DNA from: Tricharina praecox
Lineage: Eukaryota
Reading direction: 5' to 3'
Assembly: GCF_024521635.1 (NCBI RefSeq)
Contig: NW_026250427.1
Span: 248,001 to 312,000 of the forward strand
DNA length: 64,000 bases
Part shown: in pieces, positions 32,663-40,451 of the stretch
How the letters are laid out: each line of letters begins with the position of its first letter
Position numbering within the stretch: position 1 is the first letter of the stretch
Translations under genes and position numbers: made by a program
Notes under the pieces: generated by a model
What the model was told of the DNA's origin: nothing
The model's input: only the letters and a program-made list of their open reading frames with translations
Databases searched by the model: none

Positions 32663-34686
32663 TAGAAGGATGAAGTTGGGCGAGGTTTTTCAATATCGGA
32701 CCATGACCGTCGACGACATCATGCACACGATGGCTGGAAACGAGTTACGCCGTGTTGAACAGCTCGGCGTGCGTTTTGGGCGATTGCTGAAGAACATGGC
32801 GCAGGTGTTTCAATAGTCCGCCTTCCCGTCCCATCGGTGCCCGGCCGTCATTTCGTGCGGTCCATCGTGGTCAACGATTTGATAGGACTGCTTTAGTAGA
32901 ACGGGCCATGACTGGTCGAGGTAAAGGTCCCGCTTGAAGGAAGGTGTGGCTTATGTAGTGATGGAGAATCGGGGTATATTTTGATTCCGGGCACAGACTC
33001 TGCAGCCCGAGAATTACTGAGGTCTGCGGGAGTTCCCCAGGGCGTCAGGCCATCGGATCATAGCCGACCAACAGAGAATGCTATTTCGATCTAAAAATTG
33101 ATAGTTTCCCCCAACGTAATACTGCAAGAGATCTGTTAGATACGCCGATCGAGTTCGGAAAGTGACTATATCTTTTCCAGGATGTGGAGGAGGAGAGAAG
33201 TGACATGGAAAAGGGAAAGGAGCAGCAGGATGGCGGAAGTAGCTCCTGGTTTTCATAATCATAGCATACTACATACATTATATGTCTTTATCTCTATTAA
33301 TATCCCTACAACCCACAAAGCGCGAAAACCTTAAATCCACGACTCTCAACTTCTCAAGACTCCGCACCCCTGCCGCACACTAACTAAAGCTCATGTTACC
33401 CACAGACCAAAATGCCCACAAACGATCGACCGTCGTCATCGACCGACGGATAAAGAAATGGGCGAGACCACGGATCAATTAGCTAAGTATGTACAAGGTA
33501 GTTCAGCAGTCCAGGACTCCTCCCTCCGATGGCATCGCGAACAGCCTTGATGGGCCGCCAACATCCAGTCTGGAAGTACGGAGACCGTGCGGAGGGCCGG
33601 CGGTAGTGGAGTACGGTGCCTACTGAGGTAGCGACGGTTGTCTCCACCGGACCCGGGATGGGTGCGACCAGATTCTGCAAATTGAACGATTTTCAATTTT
33701 CGTGAGGCATCGTACACAGACTCCCGAAGATCTAGGTAGTGGCTGGATCTGGCTCCATCTTATATATGTTCCTTCTCACCACGGCACTTTGCTGCGATAT
33801 CCTCACCGGCATGCGACTGATCGGAGAAGGATGCTAGCCCAGCCGGACCACCATTGAGGCTAGTCGAGTGATAATACGTGAATATCCCGCCATCCAACAC
33901 AGAGCGGGAGCGGGAGCCGGAGTCGGACCCAGCACTCCATCACCGATTCCGCGCAGCAAAGAAGTATTAGAATTCGCGTTCATAGAAAGCCGTTGACAAA
34001 TTAAACCTCGCAATGCGACGAACTGACGCGTTACGATCCGCTCAGTACCCCCACTTCGCCATCCGGTGTGCGATGAAACCGTTATGACCCACCGTAATCT
34101 AATCACACCGTACACATGATGCTGAGCCGCGTTTTACCGCTCAGCTAAAGTCCCTATATACCTGCTGTTGGTATGAGCCCCGCTGTATATGTACGTACAT
34201 TATACATATAGGTACGATCTGTTCGGCGTTCGCCCCCTGAGTCCTGACACTTTCTCCGTTGGTTCAAGCCGTGTTGATGATGGGCGCCTGCTCGATGCTC
34301 GCTTGATTAAAGAATGTCAGCTGCACAGCTTGTGGGTACTGGTATATTCATCGACACTTCGCTCTCCAAACATACTGCGGGCATACTAGCAGATACCCGG
34401 AGCATGATTACGTTTTATCCTTATCGTTTAAATCACTAACTAAAAGGGACGTACCACAAAATATTCCAGCCACAAAGAAACACTACCACCCCACATGAAT
34501 TTCATTCCTGCAGTATTCCCTCCCGGGTAGCAGCCCTTGAATCTATCATCGAAACAGACCAAGCGATTGCCACGATGACAAAACTGGGAATCACAAAACC
34601 TAACGCCACCCAAACTCCAAGGCTTAAGATCCGATATATCACCTGAAGTGATTAGTAAATACTGATTTCTATTCGTTTGGAAGTGC

Positions 34687-37600
34687 TCACCCGATTGGAA
34701 CAGAGGCAGAATCAAATTTCAAGAATGAAACGATACCGGAGACACCTCCGAGGGCGATGGTGTTGTTTCGCACGGCAAAACAGCGAGTTTGGTAATTAGG
34801 GGGGAGTAAAAATATCCTACGTGCTCCTAGGAAAATCCAGCCATTACTGACATAAAACAAAGCCATTGTGTAAGGGTTTCCCCCTGCATTGACTGCCTGG
34901 ATTACATCATGCGTATCAACATCCCTGAGCTGGACGGTTCCGTCGTATGATATTAATTGCAGCACCGTGCCATCCGGCGAGAAAGCTACTGCGTTGACCC
35001 AGTCCGAATGGCCCTCAAGAGTGCCACAACAGGTCCCCGTCACTGGATCCCAGAGCCGGACGGTTTTGTCCAACGACCCCGATGCGATGAGCCTGCCATC
35101 AGGCGAGAAAGCCACTGCGGTGACACTGCCCGAATGGCCCTCAAGAGTGCCACAACAGGTCCCCGTCACTGGATCCCAGAGCCGGACGGTTTTGTCCAAC
35201 GACCCCGATGCGATGAGCCTGCCATCAGGCGAGAAAGCCACTTCGTTGACCCAGCTCGAATGGCCCTCAAGAGTGCCACAACAGGTCCCCGTCACTGGAT
35301 CCCAGAGCCGGACGGTTTTGTCGTCCGACCCCGATGCGATGAGCCTGCTATCAGGCGAGAAAGCTACTGCGTTGACCCAGTCCGAATGGCCCTCAAGAGT
35401 GCCACAACAGGTCCCCGTGACTGGATCCCAGAGCCGGACGGTTTTGTCCAACGACCCCGATGCGATGAGCCTGCCATCAGGCGAGAAAGCCACTGCGGTG
35501 ACACTGCCCGAATGGCCCTCAAGAGTGCCACAACAGGTCCCCGTCACTGGATCCCAGAGCCGGACGGTTTTGTCCAACGACCACGATGCGATGAGCCTGC
35601 CATCAGGCGAGAAAGCCACTTCGTTGACCCAGCTCGAATGGCCCTCAAGAGTGCCACAACAGGTCCCCGTCACTGGATCCCAGAGCCGGACGGTTTTGTC
35701 CAACGACCCCGATGCGATGAGCCTGCCATCAGGCGAGAAAGCCACTGCGTTGACCCAGTCCGAATGGCCCTCAAGAGTGCCACAACAGGTCCCCGTCACT
35801 GGATCCCAGAGCCGGACGGTTTTGTCCAACGACCCCGATGCGATGAGCCTGCCATCAGGCGAGAAAGCCACTGCGGTGACACTGCCCGAATGGCCCTCAA
35901 GAGTGCCACAACAGGTCCCCGTCACTGGATCCCAGAGCCGGACGGTTTTGTCCAACGACCCCGATGCGATGAGCCTGCCATCAGGCGAGAAAGCCACTTC
36001 GTTGACACTGCCCGAATGGCCCTCAAGAGTGCCACAACAGGTCCCCGTCACTGGATCCCAGAGCCGGACGGTTTTGTCCAACGACCCCGATGCGATGAGC
36101 CTGCCATCAGGCGAGAAAGCCACTGCGGTGACACTGCCCGAATGGCCCTCAAGAGTGCCACAACAGGTCCCCGTCACTGGATCCCAGAGCCGGACGGTTT
36201 TGTCCAACGACCCCGATGCGATGAGCCTGCCATCAGGCGAGAAAGCCACTTCGTTGACCCAGCTCGAATGGCCCTCAAGAGTGCCACAACAGGTCCCCGT
36301 CACTGGATCCCAGAGCCGGACGGTTTTGTCGTCCGACCCCGATGCGATGAGCCTGCTATCAGGCGAGAAAGCTACTGCGTTGACCCAGTCCGAATGGCCC
36401 TCAAGAGTGCCACAACAGGTCCCCGTCACTGGATCCCAGAGCCGGACGGTTTTGTCGCGCGACCCCGATGCGATGAGCCTGCCATCAGGCGAGAAAGCCA
36501 CTGCGCCGACCCCGTCCGAATGACCACAGAGCACTTGCAACGCTGTCGGGTCCCAAACGTTGGGAACCATTGGCTGTTGTGTGATCCAGGCGGGGACACA
36601 ATTCGAATAATGTTCCTTGAGTGTGCTTTTCTTTGGGCTGAGCGTCAGAGCAGAGCAATATACTTGCAGAGGTGCGATCGCGATGATCGATCCGAAAGTG
36701 AGCACGAAGCGCACCGCATCACTAGCCATTGCACGTAGATGATAATCGGCGTCGGACTTCAGTCGACGTCAGCAAGACTATCCGTGAAAGACGCACCCAT
36801 CTAAAGTTCCGGAGAGGAAATCGGCCTGTGCTGAGAGGCTAGCCCTTTCCAAAGCGAACGGGTATCGTGCGTATTGCAACTTGGCTTGCCTGTACTAGGC
36901 GCATCTCGCCGGGGAAAAAAAACAAGCTCGGAGTTTTCGGAGCACTCACCGGCAGCATGGAAGCCAAAGTGCGGACAATGAGAATTCCGTTGGAGATATT
37001 TCCCATTAGGCTAAGAGCCTCGAGCCAATGGAGGAAGTTTTCGTTCAGAAAATTGTGGACTAGCTTATGCAGTGATTTGGAATCGCCGTCACGGAGTTCG
37101 ACGTTACTTTGCTGGAGATGATCGAACCAAAACCGGCACGCATATTGAACCTCTTGGGGAAGGAAATGATTTACCGCAGAACGATCCACTTCGATTGTGA
37201 GGCTACCCGGAAGTTTTAGAGAACATATATCCTGCTTAAGACGTCTTGACATCAAATCGAGACAGCTCGCCGCAAGATGCGCGTGTGCATCGCCGCTAGC
37301 TATGTGGAACTGCTGATCAGTGCATCTCTGGTTGTTCAATAGAAAGTCACGGAATGACAGATGTAAAAGCGTGATGGGAACACTGTCGCTTTCGGAACCA
37401 TACTGCAATACAGAACCCAGAGACCGCAACGTCTGCTTCACTTTCCACAGTTTAGCGGACAAGAGCCCAGCAAGAGCATCAGCAGTCAAGGCGTCGAAAA
37501 GGATCACAATAGATCCAATAATCCTTTTGAATCGCCTTAAGAGTTCCGGTTTCTTCTCTGGCTCGCGACCTTCGACCACTGCGCTTATTAAGAGAGTGGT

Positions 37601-39110
37601 ATACATCGAATTGAGTTGTTGCGTTGACGATCCGTGCTCCATAGTTTCGTCACTCAACACGGAAGTGAGACGTTCTTCCGGGTCTTCGTCGATGTCCCCG
37701 ATGAAGCGGCACACCGTTGCAGCATAGATGAATAGTCCTCCTGCTTTCCGAACGAGATTATCCAGGCTTGGTTTGTCCGGCCACCCCTCGGGTAGGTCAC
37801 AATTCATCCGGATGGTGTCGAACTCGTGTCGGAGGAACGTGGATATGTCGGGATTGACGGACTCGGGGTTTTCGTGAAGGATGATCTCTCGATAGGCAGT
37901 GCTCTCTATACCGCTGAGACGGAAGCGAATCGCAATTGGCGGTCTGCTGGTTACGAAAACCCTCAGCCGCACGGGGCCGAGGGCTTTTGCCTGAGAAAGC
38001 AGTTGAAGGAGCAGTTCGGTATCTTTCTCCCCGGCGCACTCGTCCAACGCATCGACGACTAGTAATAATGATTGAGGTGGTACATCATTCAGCTGAGAGA
38101 GTGGTTGACTGATGAGATTTTTCCACTGCTCTTTAAGGTTTTGTTTGAGGATATCGGGGTTGTCGCATATAGCCTTGCTTATGTGAGCGGCAAGGCCGGA
38201 GACATCGTGGGACCGCGCACGTGCCAGCTGGTAGGCGAGGGTGGAGAGGAATTTCGAAGCGTTGGCCAGATCACCCCGACCTTTCGTAAAGAAGAAGCTT
38301 GCCCCAAGTCTCCTCTCGAGGTCCCACTTGTGAGCAACCGTACGCGCAATGGTGGACTTTCCGGTGCCAGCCATGCCATTCAACCAGAAGATGCATGCAT
38401 CGTCGGGATTATCCGACCAGCGCATAATGTCGTTAAGGAGGTCTACTCGGGTGTCGTTTAGGCATGTAGGCTCGTGTTCCAATCGGCGCGAGTTGAAGGC
38501 GGCACCGTCGGCGCAGTGCGCTTCGGCTTTTACCGCAACCGTAAATCAGCTATGGAGAATCACATTGGAGCGGCTTCCTCTAACTCACCAAACTTCTCCA
38601 AGGCTCCTTGGGTTTGCGTGTAGTGGATCGTCGTATTTCCTCCTAGAAAAAGACGATGTGAGTTAGCCAAGTATTGCTCCGCCGTCAAAGAAGAGGTTGG
38701 CGAACCAAGCCCTACAGGCCCATCGAATTTTACGTGCTGGAATTCGTTGTGCTTCGAGTGCTCATATATACGAGAGTTGTTCGTGCTGATTGTTGTCGTG
38801 TTGACTCTATGGCTATCGATTGTGCTGCTGCTGCGACTGTCGGTTGCTCGGGCGATGGGAATCAGTAAGCTGCTTGGGCCAATATCGGGGCTATCTAGCT
38901 CCTCCAGCGGCTATGTAGATCTGAGTTAGGCAGCCTCCAACTCTCAGTGGTATCCGGAAGGGCGGTACTGACCGTCACGCGTGGTCTACCGCCGCTGCGG
39001 AGCGTTTCCCGCTCGTCCCTGAGTGGATCTGGCTGCGCATTGCGTGGTCGGCCCGACGGCTCCTCCGGTGACCGATCTCGCTTTCCTAGTACACTCCGAA
39101 GAGGAGTCAT
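34687..39110 (-). CDS. Fungal NLR: NACHT-WD40 (NWD/HNWD-like), 5 exons 39110-38973, 38910-38706, 38642-38589, 38526-36950, 36756-34687; about 1347 aa
   Basis: AAFNS..CL..TR pre-NACHT motif, P-loop GMAGTGKS, Walker B VVDALDEC, VTSRP, GGLFIYA, HLSFRDFL, HWLEALSL and PLQVYCSAL, then 12 full plus 1 partial WD40 repeats. Four GT-AG introns with CTRAY branch points keep one open frame (4044 nt). Confidence 0.93.
34975..36525 (-). repeat. Intragenic tandem array of 126-bp near-identical WD40 units
   Basis: gagaaagc recurs every 126 nt from 34979 to 36491 (13 occurrences). Confidence 0.97.
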
Positions 39111-40451
39111 TGCGGGCTATGTTGGGGCGATGAATCGAGTCGAAGGTAAAATCCAAGCTGTGGTGTCCGGTTGTGATTACAAAAGAAAGGGGCGGGCTGG
39201 CTTTGGTGTTATGCGATTCTGGCTGCGGGGTTGATTGTATGCGGAGTTGTTGGTGCACATACGTACTGTACTTACATGCAGCGATTTACCGATAGTTGCT
39301 GAACCAATGGTCCGGCGACATTTGTGCTCTGCGGCGTCGTATCCATGCACGCATTTTCGGGCCTGTTGCAACCCACGACTTTTACGATCAGCTGGCGACG
39401 ACTCGCTGAAACATAACGTATCAATTCACTGAAGAGGTAATGTCTCAGTTGTATTTGGTTTTGACACTTGGCGCACAAATTAGTGCCCGAACGAGAAGTA
39501 AAACAAATAGAAATAGAGGTAGAACTGTCTTTCGTATCAAAGGCCGAGATGCCAGATATAGAAAGCCGACTGCCAGATACGACAATAAAACTATCAGAGT
39601 AGAGTACGCCGAGTACCTCTTATTTCAGCATCCAACCCCCGCTGATAGCCGATAGCCTCCTCGGACTCGGGAGGCCATCCCGAATTCCCGAGCCAGCCCT
39701 CTTCGCATGTACAATACAGTCCTCCGGCCAACGGGGAAGATTGATTGTTACAAAGAAGGGAGGCGGCCTGCCACTGCTAAGACAAGGACGGCATCGCTGC
39801 CTCGTCGGCTATCTTATCTGATCGGAGATGGCGGGTGACACTTCTTGTCTGGACTCCCGCTCACCATCTTACAATCGACATTGCACCATTTAGATACCCG
39901 CGGCCGGTGAACCTCGAAAATCTCTATTAGTATGTATGATGTATTGCGAAACAAGTGATTGACACGGTGGTGGTTTCCCGAGACGCGCCACTCTCGTGTA
40001 TAGATTGTGTCGTACCAAGAGTTCAAGTTCGCCGGCCAAACAAGCTATATGGTATGTGCCTGTTGGTGGGTGGACACAGTGTACCTATGGGGGTGTGGTT
40101 GGGTTAAGGTTGGTAGGGGTGCTGACTACATACTTCATTTCTACATACTGAGTGCGCGAAGGCAGAGTCGGCTGGGCGTCATCGGTGGGCGTTGGAGAGG
40201 AGACCTTATCGAGACCCGAGTGGGACCTTGAATTTGGGGAGAGAGACCTTGCAGGGACCTGCTAGGACTAAGCGTTAAGGAGGGGAAACCCGATGCGGTC
40301 GTTGGACGTTGAAATGTTTTCCGTTGCTGCTTTTCTATTCAGAACCCACTCGGCTAGGTCTAATTAGGTCGGCCGACGTCGGGTTACCTGTTAACTCTAT
40401 CAGCCGCAAAATTTCCTTAGTTCCCGGCGGTAGTTAGAGCACTTCCGACGT

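Follow-up and report, generated by a model that had tools for sequence, protein, structure and literature searches.

A candidate amyloid-type signalling motif shared by NLR receptors of Tricharina praecox and related fungi, with motif-only partner proteins

We found that the short peptide in front of the NACHT domain of a Tricharina praecox NLR is best read, from its sequence, as the receptor's own copy of a so far undescribed family of NLR signalling motifs in the Pyronemataceae, the fungal family that comprises Tricharina, Trichophaea and Sphaerosporella. We consider it probable that the motif represents a new NLR amyloid-signalling (beta-arch) family; this reading is based on its positions in receptors and partners, its modularity across NACHT and NB-ARC proteins, and its composition. 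Together, the short tag and its tag-only partners suggest that amyloid-type immune signalling has a variant not yet described. The window analysed is a stretch of 64,000 nucleotides (contig NW_026250427.1, positions 248,001-312,000, assembly GCF_024521635.1), and coordinates given without a contig handle are positions within it.

Results

Structure of the NLR gene

The NLR is an intact spliced NACHT-WD40 gene on the minus strand, the five exons of which (Table 1) join in one open frame of 1347 aa. It was noted that NACHT is followed by WD40 repeats in this single frame, as in the HNWD-like NACHT-WD40 class of fungal NLRs. The NACHT domain is preceded by 140 aa without a Pfam domain, AAFNS beginning at residue 141 and Walker A lying at residue 183, and no Pfam match to exons 1 and 2 was found at E<=1. 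The first-pass annotation of this DNA had described a short N-terminus lacking an effector domain, and this was borne out, as was the peptide it quoted, which is present as written in the spliced frame. The NACHT exon is 100% identical to the T. praecox record BZA05DRAFT_342136, which is partial and lacks the N-terminus.

Table 1. Coordinates of the exons, introns and motif of the NLR gene within the window
Feature	Position	Strand	Remarks
Exon 1, 46 codons, ATG at 39110, charged, disordered-looking	38973..39110	-	
Intron 1, 62 nt	38911..38972	-	spliced in X4, retained in X1 and X5
Exon 2, Ser/Thr/Asn-rich linker, then motif	38706..38910	-	
Motif core RIYEHSKHNEFQHVKFDGPVGL-G, residues 93-115	38706..38772	-	ends at phase-1 intron
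Intron 2, 63 nt, interrupts last Gly codon of motif	38643..38705	-	contigs of X1, X4, X5
Exon 3, motif tail G-G-N-T-T-I-H-Y and linker to NACHT	38589..38642	-	
Exon 4, NACHT and helical domains	36950..38526	-	NPHP3_N E 3e-31, NACHT E 2e-7
Exon 5, 13 near-identical WD40 repeats (sensor)	34687..36756	-	repeats differ between runs (allelic)

Spliced contigs were used for intron evidence only, none of the runs being recorded as RNA. Introns 2, 3 and 4 are skipped exactly in contigs of runs X1, X4 and X5, and transcript contigs of the gene start at about 39190-39216. Intron 1 is skipped in X4 only; its presence in the main contigs of X1 and X5 leads to a stop after 71 codons, before the motif, a retention that is possibly regulatory. 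A 48-nt 3' UTR intron (34639-34686) begins directly after the stop codon, and an intron just past the stop is predicted in the motif-only genes as well. The WD40 repeats (34990-36520) are near-identical in DNA, with a few codons that vary between runs as allelic differences, a variation like that of HNWD-type receptors under concerted evolution.

Extent and conservation of the motif

The motif is longer than the first-pass annotation had seen, reading R-x-Y-x-x-[SA]-K-H-N-E-F-x-x-S-x-F-x-G-x-[VQ]-x-[FIW]-G. The alternating pattern described there is part of a real motif but covers its less conserved half, the best-conserved part lying upstream. Among 54 non-redundant copies the consensus is D-N-S-R-T-Y-N-D-S-K-H-N-E-F-x-x-S-x-F-x-G-[PG]-[VQ]-x-F-G, with H (54/54), Y (52/54), E (50/54) and R (48/53) as the best-conserved residues. 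The valine of the proposed N-x-F-x-x-V was not conserved, being found in 2 of the 54 copies at an inner position that is otherwise occupied by S (33), P (7) or G (6). Proline also follows the conserved Gly in 22/54 copies; such frequent prolines can break beta-strands and count against an amyloid fold. Residues N, H, S and G and aromatics are abundant in the motif, and NLR-side HRAMs have been described as S/H-rich (PMC4518210). An AlphaFold monomer model (pTM 0.19, no secondary structure) was uninformative.

The window copy scored 44.2 bits against a profile built from 16 library hits without it, a profile that is only partly independent since the hits were found with one containing the window copy. 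With the full profile, 20 shuffled windows peaked at 10.9 bits, and the window motif exceeds chance. The first seven aligned copies (exon 2 and six further places in the genome, 7/7 candidates) all end at the same phase-1 intron.

Distribution across NLRs and taxa

When protein searches, pattern searches and a local profile were combined, the motif occurred at a threshold of at least 20 bits at 17 places in the T. praecox genome, one of which is a duplicated contig region (C38/C63). A nucleotide-binding domain lies downstream at 14 of these places, in five lineages comprising four NACHT groups and one NB-ARC. Identity to the window NACHT was 52-58% within its own NACHT-WD group, 26-28% in the NACHT-ankyrin group, 21-24% in the C38/C39:2.5k group and 25% for C39:55k; the fifth lineage, an NB-ARC-TPR protein, gave no significant match to it. 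Among the other three places, one runs off a contig end, where a separate contig suggests continuation into NACHT, one (C85) lacks such a domain within 1.8 kb, and one is C-terminal. Two copies are internal, between an alpha/beta-hydrolase-like domain and NACHT. The motif behaves as a conserved mobile N-terminal module before many unrelated NLR cores, standing, like amyloid signalling motifs (ASMs) generally, at NLR N-termini in place of an effector domain. For most motif NLRs, the window gene included, no motif-bearing neighbour was seen.

Of 120 homologues of the window NACHT, five carried the motif at 20 bits or more and four more at 5-15 bits. In a quick tree of 60 NACHT homologues, the clade that holds the window gene (SH-aLRT 99) has four members whose N-terminus is complete, and each of them bears the motif; one further copy was placed with proteins whose N-termini are long and helical. 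When 1.84 billion representatives were searched with the profile, 22 of the 23 hits carried the motif; P0126 was a repetitive false hit. Hits with a species name came from T. praecox and Trichophaea hybrida, while the NACHT homologues included Sphaerosporella brunnea. Outside T. praecox, the motif was seen in Trichophaea, Sphaerosporella and metagenome contigs. A metagenome pattern scan returned 40 loci, 13 of which were discarded as chance (stops or less than 20 bits). In the 27 genuine loci the motif is followed by a nucleotide-binding domain in 14 and is C-terminal in nine, with four assigned to neither class.

Several further arrangements were noted. The region G000:C39:1-59000 (L157-L162) is an NLR cluster with four motif NLRs of three lineages and one more NACHT-ankyrin gene near the contig end. 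At L094 (G000:C50:1693373) a motif exon accompanies a NACHT-WD gene lacking the first ~130 NACHT residues, including Walker A, likely a deletion pseudogene. L152:3984-4763 (G000:C85) has the motif after a disordered leader of 170 aa; the 1.8 kb that follow contain no nucleotide-binding domain, and the locus may be a pseudogene or another motif-only type. L176 shows TPR repeats, then a partial and a full motif copy (internal and doubled), then the start of a NACHT, and P0138 is a 143-aa called protein in which the motif runs straight into ankyrin repeats without a nucleotide-binding domain. The contig regions C38/C63, C17/C52 and C19/C34 (G000) are near-identical with small indels, possibly assembly haplotigs.

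Motif-only partner proteins

As with known ASMs, C-terminal copies were found on separate proteins: P0148 beside the C47 NLR, P0130, and 9 of the 27 metagenome loci. P0148 is a 77-aa single-exon ORF (G000:C47:91343-91576) rich in Asn, Thr, Ser and Gly, which ends with the motif followed by W-S-stop and contains neither a catalytic nor a membrane segment. A NACHT-ankyrin gene on the same strand, whose first exon bears the matching GGQ subtype of the motif, precedes it by 1 kb. The first half of P0148 resembles the window subtype (6-9/11 residues; 8/11 to the window copy), and its second half the GGQ subtype (5-7/12 vs 2-3/12). A 1434-nt Logan contig yielded an ORF call identical to P0148, and an annotated 91-aa equivalent with a C-terminal motif exists in T. 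hybrida (KAF8532763.1).

Among the places read in six degenerate pattern scans of the T. praecox genome, P0148 was the sole C-terminal copy; in two scans 14 and 7 places had no loci, of which 11 and 3 were read and the rest judged from the matched letters, and in one further scan 3/18 places had no loci. P0128 seemed to be motif-only and was rejected as an NLR first exon. A word-indexed search with P0148 returned only P0148 itself (one candidate), and a genome search with the L193 protein gave two low-complexity hits and missed P0148, which shows such searches to be blind to short motifs. The ESM Atlas held nothing above 0.86 for P0148 or for P0145, a fragment described below.

The nine C-terminal metagenome loci fall in four groups, and seven are motif-only, each starting at an ATG of its own and showing no domain in the 2.5 kb before it. 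These motif-only ORFs are predicted proteins, and their UTR introns are likewise predicted. NLR genes lie near three of five motif-only groups (C47, L193 and L202): L193 lies between a hydrolase-like gene on its upstream side and a NACHT-ankyrin gene on its downstream side, and L202 faces a patatin-NB-ARC gene. For the L172 group no NLR core was found in the available flanking stretch. In each pairwise comparison of L184, L189 and L193, the last 24 codons show 1-2 synonymous changes and none that is non-synonymous, and constraint was weaker for L172/L175 (4 synonymous and 2 non-synonymous) and L181/L200 (1 and 2). The C47 NLR cluster also contains an OTT_1508-like deaminase gene (L087:7202-8149, G000:C47:98.7 kb), at a distance of 7 kb from the gene for P0148.

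Search for effectors

The first-pass annotation had seen no HeLo, HELL or gasdermin ORF with a matching motif in the window. This agreed with our scans, in which 100 of 193 ORFs searched against Pfam gave no HeLo, HeLo-like, gasdermin or SesB domain, and a six-frame profile scan of the window gave no second motif copy (next best 4.7 bits). In line with the expectation that any effector would be unlinked, C-terminal copies of the motif were found elsewhere; an effector of the HeLo, HELL or gasdermin type was not found. The annotation had also listed what would speak against its reading: a motif not conserved in homologous NLRs, no effector with a similar motif, and no aggregation or seeding. 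The motif is kept in homologous as well as unrelated NLRs and has unlinked C-terminal copies, so two of these three objections fall.

Searches of the T. praecox genome did not find a death domain with a C-terminal motif copy; they score best candidates only and miss intron-split copies, so an effector may have escaped them. None of the six HeLo matches (five read, the sixth duplicating one of them) carried the motif; two of those read precede NB-ARC and three precede a kinase-like region. These three HeLo genes fused to a kinase-like region (L057, L059/L060 and L061) have an MLKL-like layout. The motif was likewise not seen at six HeLo-like and six patatin matches, and PNP_UDP gave three genome matches. 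Genome searches with PF11558 and PF17046 gave no match and were weak, their controls being silent or nearly so. A hydrolase with a GHSLG motif, read by eye, is tentatively labelled SesB-like, and the label Goodbye-like for a domain is likewise tentative.

On metagenome contig L200, a patatin gene (PF01734, E 1e-8) is joined in frame, through a canonical predicted last intron, to a motif-ending tail. The patatin is frameshifted near L200:6745 and the fusion was seen once; the sister contig L181 has different DNA upstream, and 0/112 patatin homologues carry the motif. The intron and tail of L200 can be aligned with motif-only L193 over its 5' intron and the region of its start, and the fusion may thus be a recent capture, or else a decayed ancestral effector. 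P0145, a fragment without context on a 1483-nt contig, has a two-helix membrane domain followed by a C-terminal motif. Partner-side copies stand on a motif-only protein in T. praecox, besides one frameshifted patatin fusion and one membrane-protein fragment.

A distant relative of P0145 in the T. praecox genome (22% identity) is a non-NLR gene at C17:612.7 kb (L080:163-1896, from G000:C17:612726 on), which matches no Pfam family and has a C-terminal two-helix membrane domain. It starts with a weak GGQ-type motif exon (8.4 bits, below the shuffle maximum), an intron and an 8-nt micro-exon, as in GGQ-type NLRs. Fragments of a similar membrane domain were noted just upstream of this gene and at C23:143.7 kb.

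Comparison with known motif families

The first-pass annotation had proposed an HRAM-like or new motif, of which the first part was not supported. HRAM spacing (hydrophobic residues at 5, 8, 10, 16 and 18, Gly at 19; PMC4518210) was shown by 0/39 copies, the second half of our motif being two residues shorter, and PF11558 matched none of the 39. The two-repeat HeLo layout of HRAM partners was rejected because the partners here are single-copy and no copy lies at the six HeLo and six HeLo-like matches. We also rejected PP/RHIM-like motifs (G-x-Q-x-G core in 0/39, no Pfam Ses_B match), PUASM (F-x-G-x-G-x-Q-x-x-G-x-G-x-F in 0/39) and the sigma motif (no NACHT_sigma among the 39 at E<=1, profile HMMs being weak on short motifs). 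No Pfam amyloid-motif family matched the 39 copies, and a PDB sequence search gave nothing at E<0.28.

The closest resemblance was to the agaricomycete families NLR05/08/22/29/44 (PMC9815663), compared by eye from alignment and figures. The spacing of these N-termini, a loose one read by eye from S2 Data, is fitted by 38/39 copies. Shared features are the first 14 positions, aromatic-x-x-A/S-x4-hydrophobic-x4-F, with GG often before the last F, as well as many NLR-side copies per genome, rare or unlinked effectors, and both NACHT and NB-ARC hosts. The T. praecox motif differs in its ascomycete (Pezizales) range, its invariant His and R-x-Y head, its tail (F-x-G-[PG]-[VQ]-x-[FIW] vs F-x-x-V-x-G-D) and its motif-only partners, and it lies 10-210 residues in or behind a hydrolase domain, whereas the agaricomycete motifs lie at the very terminus. 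The searchable part of the PMC9815663 supplements contained no KHNE, Tricharina, Trichophaea or Sphaerosporella. Identity with NLR19 (Tuber, the nearest lineage) or NLR34, both known here by accessions and positions only, is possible.

Like the HRAM pair NWD2-HET-S of Podospora anserina (PMC4518210, PMC5485727), the window NLR has a NACHT-WD40 architecture with conserved repeats and a short N-terminal motif replacing an effector; the N-x-h-x-x-(h)-x-h start, the h-G end and the aromatic residue at the partner's C-terminus are also shared with HRAM. Unlike HRAM, the inner position is mostly Ser, Pro or Gly and the partner has one copy and no HeLo, and, unlike NWD2-HET-S, there is no adjacent effector at the window locus. 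A single partner-side copy and enzymatic outputs recall PUASM/NLR12, where NLR12 is often unlinked (PMC9815663), but the PUASM pattern is missing from all 39 copies and no PNP_UDP partner was seen. Pirk of the Drosophila Imd pathway and herpesviral RHIM decoys (PMC13506858) are, like the motif-only proteins, small or dedicated motif proteins without effector function; they are unrelated in sequence and come from animals and viruses, whereas those described here are endogenous fungal genes beside NLRs.

No literature was found on Tricharina NACHT proteins or Pyronemataceae NLR amyloids. In the portions of the fungal NLR amyloid literature searched (bioRxiv 2020.01.06.895854, PMC12261475, PMC7889193, PMC12881547, PMC13506858, PMC9815663), no description of a motif-only fungal partner was found, and likewise none of a patatin with a C-terminal motif.

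Discussion

By analogy with the NWD2/HET-S paradigm (PMC5485727), ligand binding to the WD40 repeats would oligomerise the NACHT, and the clustered motifs would nucleate a cross-beta stack that templates other motif-bearing proteins. Because a conserved motif-only protein matches both subtypes, its simplest use would be as a relay or amplifier. The motif-only proteins may serve as a soluble reservoir by which the seed is extended and spread and the two motif subtypes of the T. praecox genome are connected. Output might then come from motif-bearing enzymes; in T. praecox the most plausible are the two hydrolase-motif-NACHT-WD proteins, which would be recruited in trans, and elsewhere a patatin phospholipase might act. 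This full model, with motif-only proteins as relays or amplifiers of the seed and the hydrolase-motif NLRs as outputs in trans, is put forward tentatively, at slightly less than an even chance. A wider version, a many-to-one amyloid network of the Pyronemataceae in which dozens of unrelated NLRs would converge on one motif, with microproteins as a prion-like relay or rheostat that bridges the motif subtypes, enzyme NLRs acting in trans and no HeLo-type executioner, appears doubtful. In that version new effectors could arise by splicing of an enzyme onto the microprotein exon, as the patatin fusion would suggest.

An alternative is classical two-component amyloid signalling. Here a true effector would bear a C-terminal copy, be it a patatin phospholipase, the membrane protein with two helices or a gene not reached by the searches, and the motif-only genes would be remnant tails of effectors after loss of the domain. 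The in-frame patatin of L200 and the membrane domain of P0145, each followed by a terminal motif, would fit this, and patatin has been shown to act as an NLR death domain in PLP-1 (PMC12881547), while NLR12 and basidiomycetes show unlinked effectors and an excess of NLR-side copies (PMC9815663). We nevertheless consider it improbable: the patatin is a frameshifted single sighting and maybe a recent capture with no counterpart among its 112 homologues, P0145 is a contig fragment, the six HeLo, six HeLo-like and six patatin matches of the genome are motif-free, and P0148 is the only C-terminal copy that the six scans brought to light.

If the motif is amyloid, the motif-only proteins could also be endogenous decoys or dampers, capping or sequestering NLR seeds to set a threshold, for which Pirk and viral RHIM proteins offer a precedent as RHIM-like inhibitors (PMC13506858). 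P0148, with nothing catalytic or membrane-bound and a hybrid sequence that could meet both subtypes, would suit such a role, as would the NLR genes near three of the five motif-only groups; but a decoy presupposes an effector that it protects, and the searches found no effector, and the Asn/Thr-rich tail looks more prone to nucleation than to capping, which leaves this quite improbable. We likewise give little credence to a linear motif that is not amyloid and is reused as a mobile 5' exon cassette, be it a homotypic clamp, a metal- or partner-binding peptide, or a degradation or localisation signal. The invariant His, the near-invariant Arg, Tyr and Glu and the frequent Pro do resemble a specific binding motif, the motif matches nothing in Pfam or the PDB, and the cassette with its intron and micro-exon also opens the non-NLR C17 gene, if weakly. 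However, known amyloid signalling motifs likewise pair a receptor N-terminus with a partner C-terminus that ends in an aromatic, the register agrees with that of a published amyloid-like family, and known ASMs also bear family-specific polar residues (PMC4518210).

On the preferred reading as an amyloid-signalling family, the motif appears to be an ascomycete equivalent of the agaricomycete orphan motifs, which number in the hundreds and whose targets a 2022 survey left open (Wojciechowski et al., PMC9815663). The five fungal NLR amyloid motif families listed as established all have effector-bearing partners (PMC12261475); the present family supplies a concrete small partner, a 77-aa motif-only protein beside a matching NLR. 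If P0148 seeds, a third component, relay or damper, would be added to fungal amyloid signalling, and the partners of orphan motifs have perhaps been missed by surveys that sought effector proteins of 200-400 aa.

Other short N-termini among the NACHT homologues (P0056, P0060, P0067, P0095, P0096 and P0121) resemble HRAM or PP by eye, which indicates that the NACHT-WD clade swaps among several motif types.
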